The notes below the pieces were generated by a model. The model was given only the letters and a program-made list of their open reading frames with translations, did not search any database and had not been told where the DNA came from. Positions 5,431 through 64,000 of a DNA stretch of 64,000 nt are shown here, piece after piece. The position numbers were made by a program, and so were the translations under genes. The DNA is from Negaprion brevirostris (taxonomy: Eukaryota), in the NCBI GenBank assembly GCA_030324005.1, contig JARDVH010000124.1, positions 25,723,028 through 25,787,027 of the forward strand. The letters run 5' to 3'. How positions within the stretch are numbered: the stretch's first letter is position 1; every line of letters begins with the position of its first letter.

Positions 5431-7199
5431 CAGAGAGTGAGAGAAAACGGTTAGGGAGAAGTCAGATAATGCAGGGGAGATCAGAGGTTAGATATCAGGA
5501 AGTTTTAATTGTTCATTGCCTATCAGTTGGGTGGTGGTGTTTGTGGGCTGATTATTGTGGGAAGGAGCACTGCCAATAATTGCAGGGACAGATTGTCATT
5601 ATGAGCATGTTGGATCCAAGGGATGTTGTGGAAGCGCATCACTTAGAATGTGGAGATATAATCTAAATATTTCCAGAATTTACCCTGAGAAATAGGATTT
5701 AGGATAAAAAGAATTATTCTTCGGATCAATGNNNNNNNNNNNNNNNNNNNNNNNNNNNNNNNNNNNNNNNNNNNNNNNNNNNNNNNNNNNNNNNNNNNNN
5801 NNNNNNNNNNNNNNNNNNNNNNNNNNNNNNNATTATTCTTCGGATCAATGAGTGGCAACTTTGTGGACTAATTTTTTTAAAAAACTGGATTGCTGTTTTC
5901 TGCCTCCCTTTATGACAGTCTAACTCTTCCATCCACTCACCATACCTTTTGGCTGTTTAGGTGGTTGAATTATAATTAAGTGCACAATAGTAAAATAAGG
6001 TATGGCCGTAAATGAAAGGGCTACATACTTGAATACCAGTAAGATATTAACTATCATGAGTCAGGAGAATCTTAAATGTTTTTAACATGTTACTTGTTTG
6101 TAATTAATGGCTCAGAGCTTCTGCTTGATTGAGCTGTGTGTTCCATCGTAATTTCCTTGACACCAGTCTAAATGGCATCAAAGGGAAACCATGAGAAATC
6201 TCAGTTCTAATTGTAGTTTGCACTTCTCCAGTTTCCATGAACTTTTGTGCATTTTTAAATGATCATGCTAGAAGTAGGCTCCACCTACTTGGCCATTCTT
6301 CCACATTGAAATAATCACTACAGAGCTTCTGCTGCATTGATTCATTCACAGGTCTTTAAGGAGGCAAAAACTAGACTGCACCTTTAAGACACAAGGACAC
6401 TAACAGGTATGTTGTGAAAGATGTTGGATCGTCTTATTAAATATACCAAGGAACCAACTATTGTATTTCAATTTAACTAGAAAATACTTTTGTAAAGTTT
6501 ATAAAAAAGTTATTTTTAGTCATTTAAAATCAGATTTCTCACACGTGGTGTGTTGACACTGACCAAAAATGCTTTTTTTTTTTAAAAGTGATAAACTCAT
6601 TTCAGATCTATTATTTGAATTCTACCAAGTTACCATTCATATATGTCAAAATGATGTTTAAAATTACTTCTTGAATTCTGCCCGATTATGCTGGTGCATG
6701 GCAGATTTTTGAATTTGGTGAGATTTGGTGATTTGAGGGAAAACCATGGCAGTGTTGGAGCGAGGGAGAAGAGGTATGGGAAAAAACGTTTCACAAACGA
6801 GCACAATTTTGGGTGCAATTTGCGCTGGAATCAATGATCGCGTCCAAGTGGCCTTCTCATAATTGCTCTAAGGTGCATTTAAGTTTTGGACATCCCAATA
6901 GCTAAAAATCACACCAGTCTGAAGCAGCTGTACTTTAACAAGCGTGGCTGATTCTGTGAACTACGGATGTGCACATTAGAACCCACTCCAATTCCCCACA
7001 CTCCTGCGAAAATGGTAGGTGCCATGTTCCTGATTGGAGCTTCTGCTACCATTTTTGCACAGACAGCTTCTGTCTTTACAGAAATTAAGGCCTCAGTTTT
7101 GATGGTGCTGACTAAGGCACCAATGGAGCTCCTGAATTGGCTCAGGGTTAAAGGAAAAGAAACCCATACAAAGAGATTCACTGATCCTGCTGTATTACA

Positions 7200-62870: not shown

Positions 62871-62999
62871 CTCTGATTCACTACATTCATCAGGTGAATC
62901 CTGGTGCACTGCCATCTGATACTTGGCATACAAAGCTGCTGATTGGTTAAAGGATTCAGTGAAATCTGGGTCATCGGAGGAAACCGGCACTAGTTTCAC
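62871..62999 (-). CDS. ATE1: ATE1 (arginyl-tRNA--protein transferase 1) mutually exclusive exon 7, 'VRLVP' type; apparently the downstream alternative (7b by genomic order)
   Basis: Minus strand reads ...ctgaAG|GTG AAA CTA GTG CCG...TCA GAG|GTaaaa. It is exactly 129 nt, phase 0/0, and translates VKLVPVSSDDPDFTESFNQSAALYAKYQMAVHQDSPDECSESE, matching the mammalian ATE1 129-nt alternative exon (VRLVPVSFEDPEFKSSFSQSFSLYVKYQVAIHQDPPDECGKTE, recalled). No second exon-7 copy was seen between it and exon 8. Confidence 0.96.
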
Positions 63000-63101
63000 C
63001 TTCAGCGTAGGAGATCCACGTAAATTTGCAAAGTAAGCAAATAATTGAAAACATTTTCAAAATAGAAAATAAACTTCAAGATTTACCAGATGGTTTTACC
63101 A

Positions 63102-63140
63102 CTGAAGGTAAGAATAGTGCTGGTTCTCCTCCATATCCAG
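63102..63140 (-). promoter_or_regulatory. Intronic splicing-regulatory element complementary to the exon 7 acceptor/5' end (R3-like element)
   Basis: Plus 63102-63125 CTGAAGGTAAGAATAGTGCTGGTT vs transcript acceptor 63005-62982 CTGAAGGTGAAACTAGTGCCGGTT gives 20 Watson-Crick + 1 G-U pairs out of 24, extendable through TCCTCC...CCAG. Confidence 0.8.
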
Positions 63141-63539
63141 TTCAAAAACCCACTCAAATTTATCCTATTCCTATCACCATCAAATAATCTGAACGAATTT
63201 GTATGAGCTAATACATGTGTTTTTCTTCCCACACCCGCTTTGGCAAGAACCAATCTTTTAATTTGTACCCAATGTTACACCAAATCGAGATGATTTCACA
63301 TCGGCCAAGTTTCTAAGCTACTAACAAACCCACACGTTTGCACTTTTCAAATTGACGCCAAATCAGGTTGCTAGGTGGGGCACTCTAATCTGCCTGGCTT
63401 TTCCCTTGTGTGCAACTCACTGCTTGTTGACAAAGTAGCAAAACAAAATTGAGCAAAAGATCATAATGAGACATTTTGCTTCAAATTTTAAAAACATCCA
63501 TTAGTTCCAATGAGTATTTTAGGGCATATTTAAAGCACA

Positions 63540-63835
63540 AGTTTAGCATTACCAATGATTTTTAGACGGGCTTTGGGAGAAAGCTATTCGAGACTTCTTT
63601 CATGGAAGTTTTAGATTAATCATACCTTACTAACAACTCCCTGACAAGGAAGCAATCTTTCCCTATTTACCCTATCAATTACCTTCACAATTTAAAAAAA
63701 CTCCATGAATCTCCTCTTAGCCTTTTCTGTGCCAGTGGAAATATTTACAGTACTGTACAATGTACACAGTTTAAATGCCCTTTCTATAATCGGAGTTCTA
63801 GAAACTAGACATCGTCTTCAAAGTTCAGCTTATAT
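63540..63835 (-). mobile_element. Old CR1 3' remnant in the intron upstream of exon 7
   Basis: CCCTATTTACCCTATCAATTACCTTCACAATTT and TTCTATAATCGGAGTTCTAGAAACT resemble the reversed CR1 RT end. Confidence 0.45.
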
Positions 63836-64000
63836 ATCTTGCCAGGATGATATCCCGCTGCAGTGTCAATCCAGCTGCTCAGTGGGACTTAATTTTAGCA
63901 TTGCTTGGACGAGACCACAAAAATCTTTTATTTTTAAGTATAAATTAAAATGCACATAGCTACGAAAGATTTTTAGTTTTGTGTATTTCTAAACTGGAGA

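Follow-up and report, generated by a model that had tools for sequence, protein, structure and literature searches.

An element in the intron between the tandem exons 7a and 7b of ATE1 in the shark Negaprion brevirostris is predicted to pair with the acceptor regions of both exons, and is likely, from the predicted pairing and by analogy with human ATE1, to enforce an exclusive choice between them. The position and spacing of the element fit those of human R3, so its function is probably already known, and as regards function alone we hold with high confidence that it is the shark counterpart of R3. The joint claim, that the element has this function and also originated after the exon duplication, is made with moderate confidence. 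The window, that is, the whole 64,000-nt stretch of DNA analysed (G000:C124:25723028-25787027), carries part of ATE1 on the minus strand; it was extended with eight neighbouring stretches, with the numbering continued beyond 64000. The features are given below.

Continued 64441-64313 (L002:2313-2441), past the window end, minus strand: ATE1 exon 7a, 129 nt
Continued 64390-64454 (L002:2390-2454), outside the window, minus strand: R1-like acceptor region of 7a, predicted duplex partner
63000..64000, minus strand: window part of intron 7a-7b, which runs on past the window end to exon 7a
63096..63155, minus strand: R3-like docking element, reverse complement of the acceptor and first ~42 nt of 7a and 7b
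63077..63095, minus strand: continuation of the element at its 3' end, for which the intron before 7b is the only predicted partner; possible toehold
63045..63060, unstranded: palindrome with 7-bp arms and a 2-nt loop, at most 1 nt from the symmetry axis of the element/7b hairpin
62952..63028, minus strand: R4-like partner (intron end, acceptor and first 48 nt of 7b), predicted duplex partner
62871..62999, minus strand: ATE1 exon 7b, 129 nt, 43 codons
29275..29307, minus strand: ATE1 exon 8, 33 nt

The original prediction placed a second copy of the exon upstream, beyond the end of the window. Exon 7a was found there, 313-441 nt past the window end, with a start that encodes VRLVRSSPPNSQFK, as had been anticipated, and a peptide with 98% identity to several shark proteins; the mammalian exon 7 peptide start given in that prediction also matches mammal proteins. 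Both ends of exon 7b are matched by contigs joining exon 6, 7b and exon 8 (two runs, presumed RNA), and many of the ATE1 models in the database contain both 7a and 7b, which counts against taking exclusivity in sharks as strict. Some database models (e.g. P0078, P0083, P0057) lack the 33-nt exon 8. Intron 7b-8 (29308-62870, ~33.6 kb) is as long as the human one, contrary to the reported decrease in its length with distance from human (PMC7797038). The R1-like and R4-like regions, which overlap the 3' splice sites of 7a and 7b, are identical at 16/18 nt from -6 to +12, and the 6-nt acceptor is the same in 7a, in 7b and in the plus strand of the element. Identity between the exons is high only in codons 1-4 (10/12) and is not raised across the paired region as a whole (22/42 in codons 1-14 vs 49/87 beyond). 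Elsewhere in intron 7a-7b, 63648-63751 is matched by short pieces of many unrelated contigs and is probably a fragment of a dispersed repeat.

The plus-strand reading of the element that had first drawn attention to it agrees letter for letter over 63102-63146. Against the first 45 nt of 7a the element scores 38.0 (dinucleotide-shuffle mean 18.4), and against those of 7b 37.5 (mean 15.0), values that 0/2000 shuffles reach in either case. When both strands of 142 kb were scanned as 3491 tiles (mean 25.0, sd 5.3), the best four non-self tiles were the starts of 7b and 7a (59.5, 57.5, 52.5, 51.0; next 44.0), and no second copy of the element was found upstream of 7a or downstream of 7b. The element had been described as intermediate between the two exon variants; its resemblance to both is borne out, although it is better called a mosaic of 7a and 7b matches. 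At the seven sites in codons 1-6 that differ between the exons it follows 7b at five, 7a at one and neither at one, and its distal 10 nt match 7a perfectly (codons 11-14). In a search of the shark genome the element came back as a single copy, a count that is a lower bound, and an origin from a repeat was set aside. In Rfam there were five matches, all with E 0.74-4.2 and far under the gathering score, and no family was assigned.

The expectation that the element would also pair with the upstream exon over about 45 nt agrees with the predicted duplex of 49 pairs, 38 of them exonic, between the element and the R1-like region of 7a (-60.1 kcal/mol; 0/1000 shuffles). With the R4-like region of 7b the predicted duplex has 58 pairs, 37 exonic (-62.9 kcal/mol; 0/1000 shuffles), and the comparison of the two energies proposed at the outset thus shows them to be about equal; the net cofold gains are -25.8 (7a) and -29.5 (7b). 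The span common to both predicted duplexes is 63096-63151, with 63152-63155 pairing with 7a only. In a reverse scan, both acceptors choose the element tile as the best of 337 within 7 kb (z -4.7, -5.3). In the forward energy scan of 2643 tiles, one unrelated tile has a pairing energy with the element (-55.7) on a par with those of the 7a tiles (-55.2, -54.9), the latter being cut across the pairing site. The local hairpin has a fold z of -4.36 (0/200 shuffles); the loop between the element and the 7b acceptor is ~48 nt, and the spacing from the element to 7a is 1.2-1.3 kb. By identity alone, the extension at 63077..63095 does not rise above shuffles (282/2000 equally good). Mismatches of the transition type, counted by eye, are G-U compatible in five cases and not in five, which is uninformative on selection.

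Of the element bases, 38 are paired in both predicted duplexes, 11 with 7a only and 20 with the 7b side only. Both pairings use the 38 common positions and so would compete. In the proposed switch the element would mask one acceptor at a time, with the result that only 7a or 7b is spliced in; as in human ATE1, the paired acceptor would be hidden and the unpaired acceptor used, each predicted duplex covering the AG and ~40 exon bases. The 11 bases private to 7a and the 20 private to the 7b side may serve as toeholds. Exon 7a, transcribed first, would pair first, and the 7b acceptor, emerging ~50 nt after the element, could then invade and displace 7a through strand exchange. When a 1641-nt region is folded, the acceptor-facing half of the element lies on 7b and its distal part on the 7a body, a predicted structure that is a possible exchange intermediate. 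The exon-like look of the element is likely to be maintained by selection for pairing with the present-day exons.

The switch itself has already been published for human. The human R3 element is situated between 7a and 7b, where it enforces exclusivity by pairing with R1 and R4 at the two acceptors; its disruption leads to double inclusion, and compensatory mutants restore exclusivity (PMC7797038). R1 and R4 are located directly before the exons and extend over the splice sites (PMC7797038), and the spacings catalogued for the human helices are 952 and 51 nt (PMC8052449 Table 1). The shark system resembles the human one in the gene concerned, in having two 129-nt exons with, between them, an element that is complementary to the acceptor region of each, in its spacings, and in the intron of ~30 kb that follows 7b. 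The catalogued human helices measure 13 and 17 nt (PMC8052449 Table 1) and come from a search that extended no further than 10 nt into exons; for the shark duplexes, 49 and 58 bp are predicted, with 37-38 exonic. The exonic extension of the pairing is new only relative to the available text of PMC7797038. If pairing does reach ~40 nt into each coding exon, as predicted, and leaves a private toehold at either end, this would alter how the switch could flip and where antisense oligos should aim. For the long-range R2/R5 module (intron 7a-7b with intron 7b-8) no complementary pair was found (best E 0.36), in a search by which a short helix would be missed.

In Dscam, the docking site flanks the exon cluster and pairing promotes the selected exon (PMC6071210). 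As in Dscam, a single site in shark ATE1 has several competing partners and would impose an exclusive choice among tandem duplicate exons. The shark site differs in lying between the two exons, and the predicted pairing covers the acceptor and coding sequence, and so, unlike in Dscam, would repress the exon concerned.

The original prediction regarded the element as an inverted fossil of the ancestral exon boundary. Looking like an inverted exon copy and being complementary to the exon are one fact, and a true fossil should show more. Similarity to the exons stops at about +42, where the duplex stops: beyond +45 (+46..+129 of the exons), equally good scores come from 1567 and 782 of 2000 shuffles, and for the intron at -46..-7 from 445 and 282 of 2000. 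A neutral fossil is ruled out, with similarity ending together with the duplex. Moreover, the matched codons are derived in jawed vertebrates in both exons. Residues were counted in 88 distinct first-copy and 88 second-copy peptides from 238 jawed-vertebrate proteins, with 2+2 cyclostome and 21+20 invertebrate peptides as outgroups (row meta408_B excluded), all of these being peptides that are not phylogenetically independent. The distal match of the element encodes Q12-F13-K14 of 7a, and the same bases pair with P11 of 7b. Q12 of 7a is present in 87/88 jawed-vertebrate, 0/2 cyclostome and 1/21 invertebrate first copies (E in 17), and P11 of 7b in 88/88, 0/2 and 1/20 second copies, respectively; P5 of 7b, which the middle of the element follows, is found in 82/88 jawed-vertebrate, 2/2 cyclostome and 0/20 invertebrate second copies. 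The element thus matches Q12/K14 of 7a and P5/P11 of 7b, where the outgroups mostly have E12 and R5. With jawed-vertebrate residue states matched in this way, the element is not a frozen ancestral boundary, and the description as a fossil is not supported. From these sequence comparisons the element appears to be either young or co-evolved with the exons. The tracking of derived codons does not date it, because an old element could co-evolve.

The exon starts themselves also bear on this point. The first residue is V in 176/176 jawed-vertebrate peptides and in 14/41 from invertebrates, where exon starts vary freely; in lamprey 7b it is L. Q12 also occurs in 49/88 jawed-vertebrate second copies. 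These patterns hint that pairing constrains the coding sequence at exon starts, and that coding sequence under such constraint may have converged between 7a and 7b; protein-level selection or conversion between the exons could equally account for the convergence at V1 and Q12.

The prediction also proposed counting exon 7 copies in lamprey, hagfish and amphioxus. Amphioxus shows one variant only; lamprey and hagfish have two copies, with both 7a and 7b present in each and with the same 43-residue bounds as in shark, so that they cannot serve as single-exon outgroups. The one variant in amphioxus (five proteins) and Ciona (one protein) (P0435, P0450, P0457, P0458, P0460, P0136) may reflect loss or missing annotation. 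A 43-residue pair in the vertebrate order is also found in hemichordates, sea urchins, a starfish, a crinoid and stony corals, the coral proteins being P0391, P0392, P0394, P0395, P0485 and P0486; the other proteins of this comparison across phyla are P0413, P0461 and P0398, P0378 and P0132, P0474 and P0451, and P0472. The second copies of corals resemble vertebrate 7b. As the same 43-residue unit exists outside vertebrates, the sequences suggest that the exon duplication is probably far older than vertebrates. In molluscs and arthropods the pair has ~54 residues and includes part of exon 8, possibly the product of a second, separate duplication.

In a tree of 64 rows and 43 columns, one row of which (meta408_B) was mis-cut, the copies cluster by type, with the labels needing 4 changes vs 21 when shuffled. 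Placing every second copy in a single clade costs 2.6 log units (p-AU 0.446), and restricting the duplication to vertebrates costs 20.6 log units (p-AU 0.113), neither of which is rejected; in the whole-protein tree of 104 rows the invertebrates are not resolved. Kalinina et al. considered 7b to be without an invertebrate homolog and dated the duplication to a time when chordates had already radiated (PMC7797038), and the pair in corals, hemichordates and echinoderms runs counter to that remark. Equivalent ATE1 exons outside chordates have been reported in octopus, with annotated events in fly and nematode (PMC8373072, PMC9741552); a bilaterian age of the duplication is already published (PMC8373072), and PMC9741552 treats such cases as convergence. 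For corals no mention was found in the main texts of PMC8373072 and PMC9741552, where 'Cnidaria' has 0 occurrences. With the pair present from corals through hemichordates and echinoderms to cyclostomes, the introns between the two copies form a dated series in which the origin of the element could be read.

Two further loci provide DNA for comparison. One, whose best matches are mollusc proteins, is a non-vertebrate ATE1 with tandem exon copies of 162 and 165 nt (L010:5586-5747 and 5791-5955) separated by a 43-nt intron. The other (L011:1575-1694) is an ATE1 locus with one exon only, just upstream of which the acceptor and exon start recur, by eye, as degenerate direct repeats; these appear to be an incomplete tandem copy that has kept the orientation of the exon. 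In the search of both loci for a docking-like partner, the best tiles reached z of only about -3.1 to -3.3; at L010 the best tiles differ for the two acceptors and the region folds no better than shuffles (76/100). Exclusion at L010 may be steric rather than via RNA structure. A search of metagenomes for vertebrate introns yielded six loci among 239 pattern matches, 50-61% identical; the four examined are non-vertebrate-like and the other two share match statistics with one of them.

The best explanation is that the element probably arose after the exon duplication. Its seed, in the vertebrate stem, would have been either a copy of one acceptor made by fold-back template switching or a short chance complement, the two being about equally plausible, and would then have been tuned into a compromise between 7a and 7b. 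The origin step is the weakest part of this explanation, and one that we infer from sequence. An inverted-copy origin is possible, and the data do not separate it from long selection for pairing; the codon-position pattern does not discriminate between them, since either model leaves third positions unconstrained. Stems can be both made and repaired by template switching (10.1101/2021.04.15.439925, Monttinen and Loytynoja), and the hairpins formed in this way carry a reverse-complement copy near its source, as is conceivable here. That work concerns rRNA and miRNA, and in its available text 'splicing' and 'intron' have 0 occurrences. In inverted triplication (ODIRA), described for copy-number variants, a direct-inverted-direct order is produced with fold-back junctions (PMC10766186). 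At ATE1, no event signature of template switching or ODIRA was found beyond geometry. According to Kalinina et al. it is not possible to trace where R1, R3 and R4 came from (PMC7797038); no proposal of an inverted-copy origin for a docking site was found among the papers listed in literature searches, 'inverted duplication' has 0 occurrences in the eight papers checked for it, and 'inverted' has 0 occurrences in the available text of PMC12772994.

It is conceivable, though doubtful, that 7a, the element and 7b all stem from one inverted triplication of the ancestral exon in direct-inverted-direct order, that the inverted copy has mostly decayed, and that the pairing part has co-evolved with both exons since. 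This reading supplies a mechanism for the inverted duplication proposed in the original prediction. The order 7a, inverted piece, 7b is the geometry of such an event, although geometry alone is not diagnostic. Triplication would directly explain why the docking site sits between the exons, which duplication of one arm of a hairpin does not, and is in keeping with the finding of no second element copy on either side. The loop of ~48 nt (51 nt in human) falls within the 40-80 nt spacers of template-switch triplications (PMC10766186), yet a loop of ~50 nt is ordinary for a local hairpin. The palindrome on the hairpin axis, noticed post hoc, might also be taken as favouring triplication; palindromes of this kind occur at 0.8% of 3083 AT-rich background positions, but this one is not conserved, being altered in X17 and partly deleted in X19. 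Against triplication, there is no residual similarity past +45, the codon states that the element carries are those of jawed vertebrates, and exon starts in invertebrates vary freely. If the coral pair is orthologous, the element would, moreover, have to be older than bilaterians, and at L010, the one invertebrate two-copy locus with DNA, the 43 nt between the copies leave too little room for an element, with the caveat that the 54-residue pair may be a separate duplication. The stronger version, in which a triplication in an early animal made the complete switch and pairing has since pulled the exon starts of jawed vertebrates together, we consider unlikely; the codons on which both starts would have been drawn together are V-x-L-V at 1-4 and S/P-Q-F at 11-13. 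If corals proved to carry the element, inverted triplication would be a way of arriving at mutually exclusive splicing in a single step.

It is improbable that the element is older than the duplication, i.e. that it formed one arm of a hairpin over a single acceptor, the other arm being duplicated and a second element lost. This is the published general model of Ivanov and Pervouchine (PMC6071210), was invoked for ATE1 by Kalinina (PMC7797038) and accords with the 16/18 nt shared by the acceptors around the splice site. It nevertheless needs an extra loss to arrive at a central docking site, of which no remnant was found, and leaves the first hairpin itself unexplained; moreover, to cover the sole acceptor of a needed exon with a strong hairpin would presumably be harmful. 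Finally, it is very improbable that the complementarity is incidental and the stretch an antisense donor or a sense decoy acceptor: both motifs are visible and the element core pairs weakly with the 7a donor, but the motifs are automatic for the complement of an AG/GT acceptor, the 42-nt exon match to two exons would go unexplained, and contigs from eight runs, which can show presence only, have no joint here. The donor-like motif reads as a consensus splice donor on the plus strand at 63105-63113, and the acceptor-like motif on the sense strand at 63102-63120 is a pyrimidine run with CAG at its end; both arise because the element is the complement of such an acceptor. The pairing predicted between the element core and the 7a donor is -19.1 (9/500 shuffles).

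Under the preferred reading, that of an element tuned to both exons, variation among relatives is pertinent. The element is covered by contigs in at least five related organisms, and the changes listed are those away from contig ends. Among the variable sites in 63075-63155, 4/6 fall on the 12/81 positions unpaired in both duplexes (p 0.004) and 0/6 on the 38 doubly paired positions (p 0.02), counts that are not independent trials because the organisms are related. No two-sided compensatory changes are present among the listed changes, and 4/13 of these break a predicted pair between the element and 7b (62985, 63006 and two at the terminal 63077). At two sites this genome differs from every relative covering the site: at 62985 it gains a G-C pair with the element, and at 63121, as judged by eye, it would lose a pair with 7a. 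Both differences would tilt the balance towards masking of 7b.
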